From positions 1,815 through 65,814 of the forward strand of contig JAGPCK010000007.1 of the NCBI GenBank assembly GCA_018058135.1: a stretch of DNA of 64,000 nucleotides, written 5' to 3'. How positions within the stretch are numbered: position 1 is the stretch's first letter; every line of letters begins with the position of its first letter. Source of the DNA: Bacteroidia bacterium (GTDB lineage Bacteria; Bacteroidota; Bacteroidia; UKL13-3). This document shows, one piece after another, positions 24,085 to 55,823 of this stretch. A program made the translations under genes and the position numbers. The notes beneath the pieces were generated by a model. That model was given only the letters and a program-made list of their open reading frames with translations. It searched no databases and was not told the DNA's origin.

Positions 24085-24158
24085 CGGGGTGTAGCGCAGC
24101 CCGGTAGCGCGCTTGCTTGGGGTGCAAGAGGTCGTGGGTTCAAATCCCGCCACTCCGA
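24085..24158 (+). tRNA. tRNA-Pro (anticodon GGG)
   Basis: Hand-folded cloverleaf. Acceptor CGGGGTG/CACTCCG, D stem GCGC/GCGC, anticodon stem CTTGC/GCAAG with loop TTGGGGT, T arm GTGGG-TTCAAAT-CCCGC, discriminator A. Confidence 0.9.
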
Positions 24159-24160
24159 CT
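24113..24160. repeat. attL core (48-bp direct repeat, part of the functional tRNA-Pro)
   Basis: TTGCTTGGGGTGCAAGAGGTCGTGGGTTCAAATCCCGCCACTCCGACT is identical to 55740-55787. The flanking bases differ on both sides. Confidence 0.85.
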
Positions 24161-24166
24161 CAATAA

Positions 24167-24209
24167 ATAAAGGCTTTAAGATACTTTTTCTTAAAGCCTT
24201 TATTATTTT
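24167..24209 (+). terminator. Rho-independent terminator just inside the island (serves the reconstituted tRNA-Pro)
   Basis: Perfect 14-bp stem ATAAAGGCTTTAAG / CTTAAAGCCTTTAT with a 9-nt loop, followed by a T-rich tail. Confidence 0.75.
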
Positions 24210-24230
24210 GGGTGCAACATAGGTGCAACA
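24210..24230. repeat. 21-bp element GGGTGCAACATAGGTGCAACA (two GGTGCAACA half-sites), left copy; candidate integrase arm-type site
   Basis: Identical to 55607-55627 in the same orientation and 50 bp from the attL core. The half-site resembles GGTGCAAGA inside the core. Confidence 0.55.
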
Positions 24231-24449
24231 TTTTACTTCGTTCGGGATCTGAAAACCTACATTCATCACCTATCTAATCTTATTTTATCTATGTTTATTT
24301 CAATACATTTGAGTTTGTGAGACAAACTTTGTCTTAACCTTAAACAACTTGATAACCCGAATTCAATCCCAACCTAACCTATAAATTTCTACCATTTTAA
24401 AGGCTCATGTATTAATATTGATAGTTTTAAAATTAACCTTAAGGTATAC

Positions 24450-24842
24450 ATGCAAGGAACCCAACTTAGAAAATTAGAAGCAGAAATGTGGAGAGCCGCT
24501 GACCAACTCAGGGCCAACAGTAAACTGACCGCTTCGGAATACTCCATGCCTGTATTGGGTCTGATATTTTTGCGACACGCCTACAACCGCTTTCAAAAAG
24601 TAAAAATTGAAGTAGAAAAAACCTTGCCTTCACATCCTCAAAGGAGAGCATTGACTAAAAAGGACTTTGAAGAACAAAATTCAATTTTCCTTCCCGAAAA
24701 ATCACAATTTGACTATTTAGTGGCATTGCCTGATTACCCGACTTATCAAACAGATGATATTGACTTAAAAACGAACCTTGTATTTGAACATTTTAAACAA
24801 CAATATTTTGGAGGAGGAATGAGTATTTACGGGCAGTATTAG
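24450..24842 (+). pseudogene. Truncated Type I R-M methylase (HsdM N-terminal ~95 aa) fused to unrelated repeat-derived sequence
   Basis: The N-terminus LEAEMWRAADQLRANSKLTASEYSMPVLGLIFLRHAYNRF is the HsdM_N signature. The reading frame then runs into the 109-bp repeat at 24737 and stops. No methylase catalytic motifs are present. Confidence 0.65.
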
Positions 24843-24845
24843 TAT
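24737..24845. repeat. 109-bp direct repeat, copy A (about 88% identical by eye to 50246-50354)
   Basis: ACCCGACTTAT...GATATTGACTTAAAAACGAACCT.GTATTTGAAC.TTTTAAACA.CAATATTTTGGAGG...ATGAGTATTT.CGG...TATTAGTAT aligns with 50246-50354. Confidence 0.8.
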
Positions 24846-25049
24846 GTGCTATTTGCAAGCACATTGCCAAAGTTGAACACGTGAAAAAAAGTTTTTAAAC
24901 ATGCCAGCAGCACAAGTGGAACATTTGGTTTTGCCCCTATAAACAAGGCCAAGCCTTCGGCAAAACCAAAAGAGCCACTTTTTAGCTAACGCACCAAGAA
25001 TAATAACGATATTCACAGACAAGAAAATAATAGAAACTAAAGAAATAAA

Positions 25050-53293: not shown

Positions 53294-53360
53294 GATTTCG
53301 AAAATATGAGCAATTTTAAAGGCAAATATCGCAGAGGAACGGAAAAAGGAATTTCCTTTT

Positions 53361-54368
53361 TTAATTCCCTTTTCCCTTTAGCTTTCCGATATATTCATTT
53401 GTTTTGTCCATAGAAAACTTATCTAGTGGGTGGAATTTCATTAACAGCTGTTTGGTGTATTCAAGATTTTCAATCATTTTCTTGAAGCTTGTCAATCGCT
53501 TACCCTTAATAAATATATCACACATTTGGCCGTCAGTAATCCTATAGCTGCGTTGAAAACTATTAGGTTTAATTTTTAAACCATACAGATCAATGATTTT
53601 TGAACACTCTTCTGAATAACTTAGTTCAGGCTCTCGGATATCAAGATACTGTTTTGCCTCTTTTCTAATCCAGACCAACATGGAGTAGTGGTTAAGATTG
53701 TATTTAAAATGTATCTTCACTTCGTCTTTAGTCGATATAGAAAATGGCTCATTAACCTTATACTCTATCCATTCATTAATTGTGAGTGTTTTTGCCGTAT
53801 CAATTAGGCCGGAAAATTCCTGATCTCTAAGGACTAATCTTAATTCTTCTCGAAATTTTGGTTTAAGATTGGTAACAAATTTATTTTCGTGGTAATTAAG
53901 AATTTTATTCGTCTCGCGGTTGCTGTGAAGGCTAAGAAGACAGATAAGGAAGTAAAAATAGGAATCATAAATAGGCCATTCGGTCAAAGGCAATGGGATA
54001 CCTCCTTCATCTATTATAACTTGTTGTTCCTCTTTAGATACTTTTTTAAAATATCCAAATGGTTCAATTTTAAAGTCCTTGTGATCACTGAAGCAAACCA
54101 CCTGATCTAAAAAATTATAATAGCCAAAACGAATTAATTTCCGATTTATATCTTCAGGACTATAATCAGGATCAAATGAAAAATCATACTTCTTTTCAAA
54201 ATATTCCGGATTGAATACCTCAAACAGCCCTTTCCTATAAAGAATTTGAAAAAGAAGATATCGAGAATCCTGAAGGAAATTCTTGTCAGTTGATTTTGAG
54301 TTAAAGATTCTATCAACAATCCGTAGGCAATTACCTATTGATAGTTCATATGAGTTTATTTTTTCCAT
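53361..54368 (-). CDS. Hypothetical protein (335 aa) coupled to the integrase gene
   Basis: I recognised no motif. Its start overlaps the integrase stop by 13 nt on the same strand. Confidence 0.5.
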   Translation of the reverse strand: MEKINSYELSIGNCLRIVDRIFNSKSTDKNFLQDSRYLLFQILYRKGLFEVFNPEYFEKKYDFSFDPDYSPEDINRKLIRFGYYNFLDQVVCFSDHKDFKIEPFGYFKKVSKEEQQVIIDEGGIPLPLTEWPIYDSYFYFLICLLSLHSNRETNKILNYHENKFVTNLKPKFREELRLVLRDQEFSGLIDTAKTLTINEWIEYKVNEPFSISTKDEVKIHFKYNLNHYSMLVWIRKEAKQYLDIREPELSYSEECSKIIDLYGLKIKPNSFQRSYRITDGQMCDIFIKGKRLTSFKKMIENLEYTKQLLMKFHPLDKFSMDKTNEYIGKLKGKGN

Positions 54369-55594
54369 ATAGATGCCTTTGTTGCTTCATCCAAAATTTT
54401 ATTCCCAAAACTGTCCAGATATATTTGTGTTGTCCGTTCTGATTCATGCCCCAGCAATTCACTTATAACAGCAGTTCCTTGGCCTTCATTTTTTAAGATG
54501 GTGGCAAAACTGTGACGTGCCACATAAGTCGTTATTTTTTCGTCTATCCCAATTTCTTTGGCAATGCTTTTTAAATCTCGGTTTGTTTGCTTAAGCACCT
54601 TCTCTATCCTGTTATCAATCTGGGTGGGGGTTACATGGATTTCCCTGTTTAATATTGGGAAAATATAATCTTTGTCGTTCCCTGAGTAATAGATATCCTT
54701 ATAATACTGAATTATCTCGAATGCTTCATCAAGTAACCCCATATCGAAAGATTGCCCTGTTTTTTTTCTGGTGTATTTCATTCGATTGTCTTTTGAAATA
54801 CTTTTCCATGTAAGAAATGCAATATCTGTAAAGTTTGTCCCCCTAGTTAAATAAGAGAACATAAAGTAGTTTTTTGAATGGAAAAGTGAACTGTCTGGGG
54901 TTGGTTTATAGTCAAAAATTTGTTTTATTTCTTGTTTACTAATTGCACGTTTTTCAGTTTTATGTTTTCTGTATTTTTTAAAGCTAAAATCTTTGAATGG
55001 GTCAAAATCACTACGAGCTAACCCTTCTTTCTTTGCATTGTTGATAAGTGTTTTTAATGTTCGCATAAATACAAAAATGGAATTCAGACTATTGCCTTTA
55101 TTTAAATACCAAGTGTCAAATTTTACGATAAACTCATGAGTTATTTCGAAGATTGAAAGGTCTCTGCCTTGTCTGAAATTGAACAGTGCCCTTCTGGTTT
55201 CCTTAAAAACATTGCTATAGCCAATTCTTCCCGATTTGTTCAAAGATTCAATTGTTTGATCGAAGTACTGAAACAATGAAGTACTATTACGTTTTTTTTC
55301 TTTTAGCAGATGCGTTCTGATTACCCCGACACCGGCCTGAACCCCCTCTTGTTCTAGTGTCATTAAAAGTTTATTAACCTCCAATTTTTTCTGATCAATG
55401 ATCATTAACAGTTCTTTCTGTAAGGGATGGCTTTTCTTAGGTGCATTTCTTTGTTCATCCCAGTTCTTTACGGTCGAACGATATCCTGTTGAAATGATAG
55501 TTCTTTTACGATCTTTAATAAGAACCAGCGCAATGGGGTATTCATCATTGACTGATTTTTTCCATGTGAGTAATTGTACTTTTACTGATGCCAT
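54356..55594 (-). CDS. int: Tyrosine-type site-specific integrase (Bacteroidota type with an N-terminal arm-binding domain)
   Basis: 412 aa. The N-terminus VKVQLLTWKKSVNDEYPIALVLIKDRK is arm-binding-like. The catalytic region is ARHSFATILKNEGQGTAVISELLGHESERTTQIYL (R, HxxR, H, Y). It lies 146 bp from the attR core. Confidence 0.88.
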   Translation of the reverse strand: MASVKVQLLTWKKSVNDEYPIALVLIKDRKRTIISTGYRSTVKNWDEQRNAPKKSHPLQKELLMIIDQKKLEVNKLLMTLEQEGVQAGVGVIRTHLLKEKKRNSTSLFQYFDQTIESLNKSGRIGYSNVFKETRRALFNFRQGRDLSIFEITHEFIVKFDTWYLNKGNSLNSIFVFMRTLKTLINNAKKEGLARSDFDPFKDFSFKKYRKHKTEKRAISKQEIKQIFDYKPTPDSSLFHSKNYFMFSYLTRGTNFTDIAFLTWKSISKDNRMKYTRKKTGQSFDMGLLDEAFEIIQYYKDIYYSGNDKDYIFPILNREIHVTPTQIDNRIEKVLKQTNRDLKSIAKEIGIDEKITTYVARHSFATILKNEGQGTAVISELLGHESERTTQIYLDSFGNKILDEATKASIWKK

Positions 55595-55606
55595 AATTTA
55601 AACCTA

Positions 55607-55627
55607 GGGTGCAACATAGGTGCAACA
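55607..55627. repeat. 21-bp element GGGTGCAACATAGGTGCAACA, right copy; candidate integrase arm-type site
   Basis: Identical to 24210-24230. It lies 13 nt upstream of the int start codon and 113 bp from the attR core. Confidence 0.55.
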
Positions 55628-55739
55628 AATTTAGTAAAAAAGAGCAAAAATGGAAAACTATCTATAAACATAAATTATTTAACTATCTGAAAATAAGAAT
55701 ATATGTAATAAACTATAAATATCGAAAACCAGAATCCCA

Positions 55740-55787
55740 TTGCTTGGGGTGCAAGAGGTCGTGGGTTCAAATCCCGCCACTCCGACT
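55740..55787. repeat. attR core (48-bp copy of the tRNA-Pro 3' portion)
   Basis: Identical to 24113-24160. No tRNA 5' half lies upstream of it, so it is not a second tRNA gene. Confidence 0.85.
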
Positions 55788-55823
55788 AAAAAAGTCCTGT
55801 AGAAAACTCTACAGGACTTTTTT
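55788..55823 (+). terminator. Rho-independent terminator after the attR tRNA fragment (probably the original tRNA-Pro terminator)
   Basis: Stem AAAAAGTCCTGTAGA / TCTACAGGACTTTTT with loop AAAC and a T-run. Confidence 0.75.

Follow-up and report, generated by a model that had tools for sequence, protein, structure and literature searches.

The 64-kb window analyzed here, taken from an uncultured Bacteroidia bacterium of the UKL13-3 lineage (contig JAGPCK010000007.1 of assembly GCA_018058135.1), contains a 31.6-kb island at a tRNA-Pro(GGG) gene. The island is a real and recently mobile site-specific integrative element, because a near-identical contig carries the empty site and a copy that is 98% identical lies in another flank. 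We read it as a single 31.6-kb element with its own integrase, a helicase-primase pair and an iteron origin, which needs a helper for transfer, and we give this reading a probability of about 0.65. By sequence comparison the element is placed in a relaxase-less sister clade of the backbone of NBU-type mobilizable transposons, a clade that is widespread in environmental Bacteroidota. All coordinates are positions within the window, and L-numbers are locus labels of compared contigs.

Many genomic islands have no visible means of transfer. A homologous backbone is accompanied by a relaxase in gut Bacteroidales but lacks one in environmental Bacteroidota, which provides a natural comparison for changes of transfer route. 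Since the DUF6371 family, to which the primase of the island belongs, has more than 3,500 detectable members, an answer on transfer would apply to a large share of the mobile DNA of Bacteroidota. The elements carry restriction systems and secreted proteases between otherwise identical strains. New in this work are the delineation of the relaxase-less sister clade, a supported primase assignment for DUF6371, the arm-doublet layout of the att sites, the in-frame insert of iteron cores, and a cargo-laden 31.6-kb member with a documented empty site. No literature description of this element family was found, and among the papers searched the single one to mention DUF6371 was unrelated.

Target gene and attachment sites

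The integration target is the tRNA-Pro(GGG) gene at 24085–24159 on the plus strand, which was detected by ARAGORN and by Rfam (64.6 bits) and is identical to the tRNA in the empty-site contig L005. Two tRNAs were the only Rfam matches in the window. The last 47 nt at the 3′ end of the gene come from the attL core, one copy of a 48-bp perfect direct repeat (repeat family D4) located by a repeat finder at 24113–24160 (attL, with a junction that is absent from the empty site) and 55740–55787 (attR), both on the plus strand. The span bounded by these repeats is 31,627 bp. Each copy is followed by its own terminator on the plus strand. An element-supplied hairpin with a 16-bp stem serves the rebuilt tRNA (24166–24204), and the original host terminator of tRNA-Pro, with a 17-bp stem, follows attR (55787–55824) and stands directly after the tRNA in the empty site; both stems are 100% complementary. 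The repeat finder, ARAGORN, Rfam and the hairpins thus confirm the bounded island that a preliminary description of this DNA had recognized. The element inserted precisely into the 3′ part of tRNA-Pro(GGG), rebuilt the tRNA and brought its own terminator.

Just inside both ends lie candidate arm-type sites of the integrase. The doublet GGTGCAACA-TA-GGTGCAACA at 24211–24230 (plus strand, P′ arm) is found 51 bp inside attL, and a second GGTGCAACA doublet at 55608–55627 (plus strand, P arm) is found 112 bp inside attR, 14 bp upstream of the int start codon. The 9-mer occurs six times in the window against 0.59 expected, and four of the six occurrences make up the two tandem doublets, one per island end. 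The 8.2-kb relative L009, integrated at tRNA-Phe, has analogous doublets of a different sequence (TTTGGGTCACCC repeated twice) at both ends. The GGTGCAACA doublets look like arm-type sites for the Arm-DNA-bind_5 domain of the integrase, and we infer a lambda-like att layout of core sites plus arm doublets. On this reading they tie the far-left end to the far-right integrase and make the whole 31.6 kb one excision unit.

Empty site and variant copies

The empty-site contig was located through an exact-sequence lookup of a protein encoded in the flank. In this contig (NCBI JAGNUM010000041.1, L005, from GCA_017986975.1) the tRNA-Pro is directly followed by the terminator found at 55788–55823 of the window, the arrangement that the preliminary description had predicted for an unoccupied attB in a relative. 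The gene order is DUF6268 gene, tRNA-Pro, the window's terminator, and the gene of a 1563-aa type IX secretion system (T9SS) protein. The flanks are 99.986% identical to those of the window over 13,850 bp and 100% identical over 5,676 bp. All 31.6 kb are missing at once, and the junction lies exactly at the repeat. The near-identity of the flanks makes the presence/absence of the 31,627 bp very recent. The integrase is present in three of the four NCBI metagenome-assembled genomes (MAGs, named 'Bacteroidia bacterium') that share the flank protein.

The ENA scaffolds L174–L176 contain a copy of the element that is 98% identical to that of the window. The similarity continues through the att core and then ends, as seen in L174 and L176, which places the copy in a different chromosomal flank. 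Variant L175 has the same right-hand cargo as the window in another host context, and the open reading frames (ORFs) at 47940–50132 are conserved in it. Two JGI contigs, L178 (JGI 3300056999 Ga0558716_02974) and the identically arranged L179, have the same core as the window, with 94% nucleotide identity in the integrase gene and 95% in the excisionase-like gene. In these contigs the gene of the 335-aa protein has diverged, the VapE helicase gene is deleted, and truncated remnants are all that is left of the primase gene. Their cargo is wholly different from that of the window and consists of a TerD/TerY/VWA/PP2C/kinase cluster. Comparison of the copies shows that cargo turnover is modular.

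The backbone module

The right-hand 5.4 kb of the island form a tight operon of co-directional minus-strand genes (50586–55594). The reading frames of int and orf335 overlap by 13 nt and the other intergenic gaps are 11–67 nt. The tyrosine integrase (54356–55594), which adjoins one att site, has an N-terminal arm-binding domain (Pfam Arm-DNA-bind_5, Phage_int_SAM_5, Phage_integrase). Between int and the excisionase-like gene lies a variable slot that here encodes a 335-aa orphan (53361–54368) with no match in Pfam, PHROGs, NCBIfam or PADLOC and only two related clusters among 1.84 billion representatives. Its structure model, based on a three-sequence alignment, was unusable, with a predicted local distance difference test score (pLDDT) of 36.6. 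Across the family this slot is hypervariable and holds differing unknown proteins of 100–800 aa. The operon continues with an HTH_17 protein (52985–53293; PF12728, 1.8e-7), a candidate excisionase or regulator by its domain and position, and with a VapE-like P-loop replicative helicase (51708–52973; PF05272, 1.9e-33; PHROG 1313 'DNA helicase', 3.9e-52). It ends with a DUF6371 protein (50586–51674; PF19898). The earlier guesses for the five backbone proteins hold, the primase call being backed by a DnaG-like model and by natural DUF6371-VapE fusions. A sigma-70 promoter scan gave scores at or below shuffle level, the sigma-70 model being uninformative for Bacteroidota.

No island ORF matched a relaxase, type IV secretion system, capsid or terminase family in Pfam, PHROGs or NCBIfam, as the preliminary description had noted, and none matched hidden Markov models built from the relatives' 32 relaxases, 13 MobV and 23 MobC proteins (cluster seeds). 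The island has no recognizable oriT. Genes for packaging or capsid hijacking (terS, ppi, cpm, sid/psu/delta, capsid) were likewise absent according to Pfam and PHROGs.

DUF6371 as a DnaG-like primase

DUF6371 is a family with 3,527 matches. An alignment of 28 members revealed an invariant zinc-ribbon pattern (C-x-C...C-x2-C; C17, C19, C40, C43) and invariant acidic residues (E265, E267, D312, D354, D357), with V-E-S-E and P-D motifs. An AlphaFold2 model of the window's protein had a mean pLDDT of 79.5. When this model was compared with the PDB by Foldseek, DnaG RNA-polymerase domains were the top five and eight of the ten best matches, from B. subtilis, S. aureus, Aquifex, P. aeruginosa, M. 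tuberculosis and E. coli. The scores were modest (E-values 3e-4 to 5e-2, TM-scores 0.25–0.40), and Twinkle, T7 gp4 and T4 primase appeared lower in the same list. Searching the PDB with a DUF6371 sequence profile turned up no meaningful match, and it took the fold comparison to reveal the likeness.

Natural fusions provide a second line of evidence. Five proteins of ~680–690 aa (P0170, P0183, P0192, P0196, P0226) have the arrangement Zn_ribbon_16-DUF6371-VapE, and parallel fusions join Toprim_2 or Toprim_4, or BT4734_N/PriCT_2, to VapE. The fusions with VapE indicate that DUF6371 fills the primase slot of a primase-helicase. Motifs, model and fusions support the assignment of DUF6371 as a DnaG-like zinc-ribbon/Toprim primase that would partner with, or be fused to, VapE helicases. 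By analogy they also support a VapE and DUF6371 helicase-primase pair working like a split P4 alpha or T7 gp4. In two DUF6371 proteins (P0037, P0081), ~100 aa of the domain are duplicated in tandem within the protein.

Iteron array and in-gene repeat

The earlier report of iterons was correct: 13 units of 19–20 bp, all in the same orientation and with consensus TTACTGCGCATCTACGTTTT, make up an array at 50354–50601 on the plus strand (Tandem Repeats Finder (TRF), 12.7 copies, score 289; unit list). The array overlaps the primase stop codon, and its copy number is variable, with ~5 fewer units in variant L175. We consider it a putative replication origin of the iteron type, a type characterized by at least three repeats of about 17–22 bp in one orientation beside the replication genes. 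Two other assignments were rejected: a CRISPR array, because there are no spacers, and a partition centromere, because there is no partition ATPase gene.

A second array lies inside the primase gene at 50911–51133 (plus strand; TRF), where a 36-bp unit is repeated six times in frame. Eight iteron cores (CTGCGC) lie in it, oriented as in the iterons. The window as a whole has 31 CTGCGC sites, 20 of them between 50,000 and 51,500. The repeat encodes a 73-aa insert that is disordered in the model (pLDDT <50 for residues 186–242). This insert is positioned between the FGEHL and VESE motifs, whose spacing is 5–12 aa in 211 of 214 family members and 80 aa in the other three, all of which are from the lineage of this element. 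At the equivalent position contig L178 (12935–13433 of that contig) has a ~490-bp array of the motif GCGCAGT with a 10-bp period, despite the loss of helicase and primase; it contains a 125-bp higher-order unit that is 95% identical between copies. The in-gene array probably extends the origin or serves in copy control.

In phage lambda the origin lies inside gene O, and P4 has ori and crr. The island resembles these in having in-frame iteron-type repeats in a replication gene, where they encode a flexible linker, and a second repeat cluster near the main origin. It differs in that its array is a lineage-specific insertion in a primase and not in an initiator.

Other repeats were observed in relatives. 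Tandem or inverted 9-bp repeats (3–7 copies) recur at the NTPase/primase junction, ~1.05–1.2 kb upstream of the primase stop codon, in mob-bearing and mob-less relatives (e.g. L014, L028, L029, L035, L036, L152), and these may be a conserved cis site (origin or oriT). Locus L125, on a Mucilaginibacter chromosome, has a 124-bp × 2.9 tandem repeat 103–450 bp downstream of the primase gene.

Relatives of the backbone

A census was made of 160 loci with genes for DUF6371 relatives, 80 each from IMG/VR and from GTDB genomes, in which ORFs were called, proteins clustered and cluster representatives annotated. The conserved order relative to the primase (position 0) is int at −4, HTH_17 at −2 (65 loci) and an NTPase at −1. 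The loci fall into three groups. Group A comprises gut Bacteroidales (Bacteroides, Segatella, Parabacteroides and others) with a DUF3987 NTPase. In these loci the primase is followed by MobC and a PF03432 relaxase, or by a Mob_Pre relaxase, and often then by a type I restriction-modification (RM) system with invertible hsdS genes and a second integrase. This layout is that of an NBU-type mobilizable transposon. Group B comprises environmental Bacteroidota (Saprospiraceae, Chitinophagales, Cytophagales, Flavobacteriales and others) with an AAA_25, D5_N or VapE NTPase and no relaxase. Group C consists of true phages, on IMG/VR contigs of 25–140 kb, with the primase beside a DnaB-like helicase and ribonucleotide reductase. 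DUF6371-type primases of large phages were seen in L039–L047, L068–L092 and OR575929.1 ('phage csAssE-Sib'). Their occurrence in large phages as well makes the primase family common to phages, mobilizable transposons and relaxase-less elements.

Relaxase counts were restricted to loci in which 3 kb or more of sequence follow the primase. Of the 54 DUF3987 loci, 39 have a relaxase, against none of the 33 AAA_25 loci and none of the 10 D5_N loci. A Pfam scan of 60 representative downstream proteins of group B gave 25 listed families, with no relaxase among them. All best matches of the window's primase and integrase are in group B, and group A primases are 53–55% identical to that of the window over the core.

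Integrated members of group B are found at several targets. L163 (7.5 kb) lies next to mnmE with a 25-bp repeat. The tRNA-targeting elements are L009 (tRNA-Phe, 22-bp repeat with 91% identity, 8.2 kb), L109 (tRNA-Phe, 15 bp, 10.3 kb), L107 (tRNA-Thr, 50 bp perfect, 10.6 kb) and L137 (tRNA-Val, 46 bp perfect, 12.0 kb), and in all four the cargo is located between primase and tRNA. In these relatives the elements read direct repeat, int, primase, cargo and tRNA. The clade includes integrated members of 6–12 kb and circular contigs of 6–9 kb, and the window island is of the same design, with 26 kb in the cargo slot. Many small relatives lie directly downstream of mnmE (trmE; L115, L131, L136, L142, L151, L162, L163, L171 and others), a gene that is the target of SGI1-type islands in Proteobacteria.

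Seven IMG/VR contigs with DUF6371 are circular, having terminal direct repeats of 114–127 nt and sizes of 4.3–8.8 kb. Three of these (L027, L044, L048) have counterparts of 85–93% identity integrated in chromosomes beside mnmE. Two others, L022 (4734 bp, with an additional D5_N helicase) and L071 (4291 bp), encode the primase but no integrase; they are listed as viral and resemble minimal replicons of the plasmid kind. The circular contigs are evidence that the backbone module may act as an autonomous replicon. The record 'Bacteriophage sp.' MT837912.1 was considered as a small satellite genome and rejected, as it is a fragment of a Segatella copri element.

In mob-bearing relatives from gut Bacteroidales the mob genes are often directly followed by a second small integrase flanked by several oppositely oriented hsdS genes (L021, L052, L056, L058, L065, L066, L152, L157, L165). 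The arrangement resembles a shufflon that travels with the element and inverts the specificity genes of a type I RM system.

Proposed mechanism and transfer between cells

In the mechanism that we propose, the tyrosine integrase would bind the core and, via its Arm-DNA-bind_5 domain, the GGTGCAACA doublets, with the HTH_17 protein as directionality factor or regulator. Integrase, arm and core sites and HTH_17 protein would together perform excision and integration. The VapE-type helicase and DUF6371 primase encoded by the element could replicate the excised circle, starting at the 13-iteron origin, and the in-gene array might be part of the origin or of copy control. As the island has no transfer or packaging genes, movement between cells would occur via a helper.

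Several points weigh against this mechanism. The excised circular form expected in the preliminary description was not recovered: the attP junction (island-right/core/island-left) had no match in assembled JGI metagenome contigs or IMG/VR, a weak negative given that assemblies are a poor place for such junctions, and a shorter attR-type pattern likewise had no match there. Logan contigs bearing the integrase end within the repeat and within the iterons, as k=31 unitigs should, and so carry no information on excised forms. Being drawn from a MAG, the empty site represents a population polymorphism without direction (gain or loss). Origin activity of the iterons and recognition of the arm sites are both inferred. 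A screen based on Pfam and two relaxase clusters could have missed a relaxase of a new type encoded by one of the unknown ORFs (335 aa, 265 aa). Furthermore, NBU elements, which have this backbone too, bear the designation 'non-replicating' and employ their primase-like gene in excision; excision instead of replication might therefore also be the task of the helicase-primase pair of the window.

The preliminary description regarded the architecture as that of phage satellites rather than of conjugative elements. This distinction was not upheld, since the same backbone occurs in NBU-like transposons with MobC and relaxase (the 39 relaxase-bearing loci; MTnBf8, PMC13597742). Because the backbone has mob-bearing cousins, architecture alone does not point away from conjugation. 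The satellite reading itself gained the relaxase-less sister clade with its small circular IMG/VR contigs, and found no packaging or capsid-redirecting gene, virion evidence or helper in its favor.

In its strict form, the satellite reading has the island induced by a helper phage, replicated from the iterons and packaged in helper capsids in the manner of PICI, P4-like or VEIME-like elements, the 31.6-kb island as a monomer and the 6–8-kb relatives as concatemers. We consider this possible, at clearly less than even odds. It agrees with the module of integrase, excisionase-like protein, helicase-primase and iterons without a relaxase, with the listing of relatives as small circular contigs in IMG/VR, and with defence cargo as in P4 and PICI hotspots. 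In some relatives the protein directly after the primase weakly matches small-terminase PHROG 24579 (2.9e-6) or has a DUF5681 domain, and marine VEIMEs with similar gene sets include Flavobacteria (PMC9618062). However, the island itself encodes nothing resembling TerS and has no gene for capsid remodelling or packaging. Accessory proteins of the relatives (clusters c34, c38, c41), used as profiles, had no match among PDB sequences, and the IMG/VR listing may merely reflect integrase, helicase and primase matches and is not evidence of encapsidation. A VapE-only search of IMG/VR found no relative, no helper, cos/pac site or virion evidence is at hand, and the size is outside the usual range.

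An NBU-like integrative mobilizable element (IME) that lost or never had a relaxase, and that is mobilized in trans via an oriT-like site, is a less probable explanation, and one that we rate as unlikely. The NTPase and primase of such an element would have their part in excision or establishment, as they do in NBU1. The backbone order is common to the MobC and relaxase or Mob_Pre elements of gut Bacteroidales, with their homologous primases. The gene table of MTnBf8 reads int ... DUF3853, AAA NTPase, Toprim primase, mobN1 (PMC13597742). NBU1, NBU2 and Tn6031 integrate at tRNA 3′ ends, Tn6031 at tRNA-Pro, and relaxase-less IMEs that use the relaxase of a helper are known (PMC5704250). Against this, the island has no relaxase, MobC or recognizable oriT, nor can a conjugative element be seen in the window. 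DUF3987 is the NTPase of every relaxase-bearing relative, whereas the VapE/AAA_25/D5_N clade has a relaxase in 0 of 43 loci with enough downstream sequence. A 13-iteron array beside a helicase-primase pair is moreover what one expects of a vegetative origin, not of an oriT.

The element could also be an integrative plasmid or episome without a dedicated transfer route, switching between chromosomal and plasmid states, inherited for the most part vertically and only rarely passed on through vesicles or transformation. The module would amount to a complete replicon, there are no transfer genes, and the circular 4.3–4.7-kb contigs without an integrase (L022, L071) look like plain plasmids. Yet the 98% identical copy in another flank and the wide spread across orders of Bacteroidota imply efficient horizontal movement, and DUF6371 is rare on catalogued plasmids (10 records). 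We regard this possibility as quite unlikely, somewhat more so than mobilization in trans.

For the helper-dependent element that we favor, we lean tentatively towards particle-borne transfer by a helper phage, to which we would still not give an even chance, over conjugative mobilization via an unrecognized oriT, which we find rather doubtful. The iteron origin and helicase-primase pair, the mob-less clade, the small circles and the weak TerS-like matches (unconfirmed by the PDB searches) fit a satellite or episome lifestyle better. A more far-reaching proposal is that the relaxase-less clade is a Bacteroidota-wide unnamed family of helper-phage satellites or particle-borne episomes, derived from or ancestral to NBU-type transposons by a swap of mob for a vegetative origin. 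The window island would then be a cargo-swollen member, and the in-gene array would act in cis in origin function, in copy control or in incompatibility. We put this forward as a speculation that is improbable in its entirety.

Comparison with known elements

The island shares with NBU-type elements (NBU1, NBU2, MTnBf8, Tn6031) a tyrosine integrase inserting into a tRNA 3′ end, the order of int, variable gene(s), small HTH protein, P-loop NTPase and Toprim-type primase, and a homologous DUF6371 primase (53–55% identity over the core). It differs from them in several respects. In the NBU type the primase is followed by MobC and relaxase genes, whereas the window island has the 13-iteron array; the NTPase of the island is of the VapE type and not DUF3987; the island measures 31.6 kb instead of about 10–15 kb; and its host is an environmental Bacteroidia bacterium.

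With phage satellites (SaPI/PICI, P4-like, PLE) and VEIMEs the island has in common an integrase, an AlpA-like HTH protein, helicase and primase with an adjacent iteron origin, tRNA integration, defence cargo and the absence of capsid genes. This likeness is one of function and layout, and no sequence relationship to the satellite protein families was detected. The island differs in having no packaging or capsid-redirecting gene (terS, cpm, sid, psu) and no known helper. Its size exceeds that of typical satellites, as had been noted before, by a factor of 2–4 (31.6 kb versus roughly 5–18 kb, or about a third of a helper genome); the 6–12-kb relatives fit that range. Hackl et al. reportedly described in 2023 the tycheposons of Prochlorococcus as cargo islands at tRNA genes with a tyrosine recombinase, and PMC11876622 also cites that study. 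By description these resemble the island in often having primase and helicase genes, in having no transfer genes and in strain-level presence/absence. They differ in belonging to another phylum, and an iteron origin and arm-site layout are not in their definition.

By analogy the element works like an integrative replicon of the PICI/P4/tycheposon/VEIME type, with a backbone homologous to that of NBU-type mobilizable transposons. Without its own relaxase it is not a canonical IME, and without packaging or capsid-hijack genes it is not one of the named satellites, so we file it under neither. The general kind is already known, because small integrase-primase elements of Flavobacteria have been reported in marine virus-like particles and vesicles (PMC9618062, PMC11876622).

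Cargo

The cargo lies between the origin and the tRNA-proximal end. Two copies of a ~111-nt direct repeat (D3), ~90% identical and detected by a repeat finder, bracket the entire ~25.4 kb: the left copy at 24736–24850 and the right copy, which abuts the first iteron, at 50246–50362 (both plus strand). Recombination between the D3 copies would leave a minimal element of ~6.1 kb. To the left of the bracket, at 24450–24735 (plus strand), lies a truncated N-terminal hsdM remnant (Pfam HsdM_N). It is unrelated in sequence to the intact hsdM at 25050 and is therefore a leftover of earlier RM cargo. The GC content is 0.33–0.37 over most of the island and ~0.41 in the flanks, and the gene of the M43 peptidase described below is host-like at 0.41–0.43.

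These features could suggest a composite or decayed region, that is, a ~6-kb element with unrelated adjacent genes, or a prophage remnant: the D3 repeats bracket the whole cargo, the hsdM remnant shows past rearrangement, and the GC content is heterogeneous. But the empty site lacks all 31.6 kb at once, arm-site doublets are present at both extreme ends, the right-hand cargo recurs in variant L175 within a different host context, and there are no phage structural genes. A composite or decayed origin is therefore very unlikely, by far the least probable of the explanations considered.

The defence cargo at 25050–35997 (plus strand) consists of a complete type I RM system with two embedded GmrSD/DUF262-like genes. 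The RM genes are hsdM (25050–27416), hsdS (27416–28744) and hsdR (32893–35997), identified by Pfam and PADLOC (MTase_I, Specificity_I, REase_I), and the GmrSD/DUF262-like genes are located at 28754–30622 and 30534–32903, one of them matching HEC-06 of PADLOC. A 265-aa protein without family match follows on the minus strand (36293–37090). The preliminary description considered the cargo to be dominated by defence, but defence accounts for ~11 kb of the ~25.4 kb (~45%), and the remainder mainly encodes T9SS-secreted proteins. Type I RM genes recur beside the primase in ~20 related loci.

The non-defence block at 37463–47619 (plus strand; Pfam Por_Secre_tail, Peptidase_M43, PKD) had no match to a structural phage family in PHROGs. 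It encodes two paralogous T9SS-sorted proteins (37463–39472, 39771–41813) and a 1928-aa protein with M43 peptidase, PKD and T9SS sorting domains (41833–47619), all on the plus strand, with an HTH_3 gene on the minus strand (39466–39723). A 300-nt repeat that is 78% identical (38776–39075 and 41114–41413) covers C-terminal parts of the T9SS paralogues and indicates a tandem gene duplication inside the island. Between this block and the right D3 copy are three small or hydrophobic plus-strand ORFs of unknown function (47940–48791, 49021–49242, 49296–50132), which have no family match and are the ones conserved in L175.

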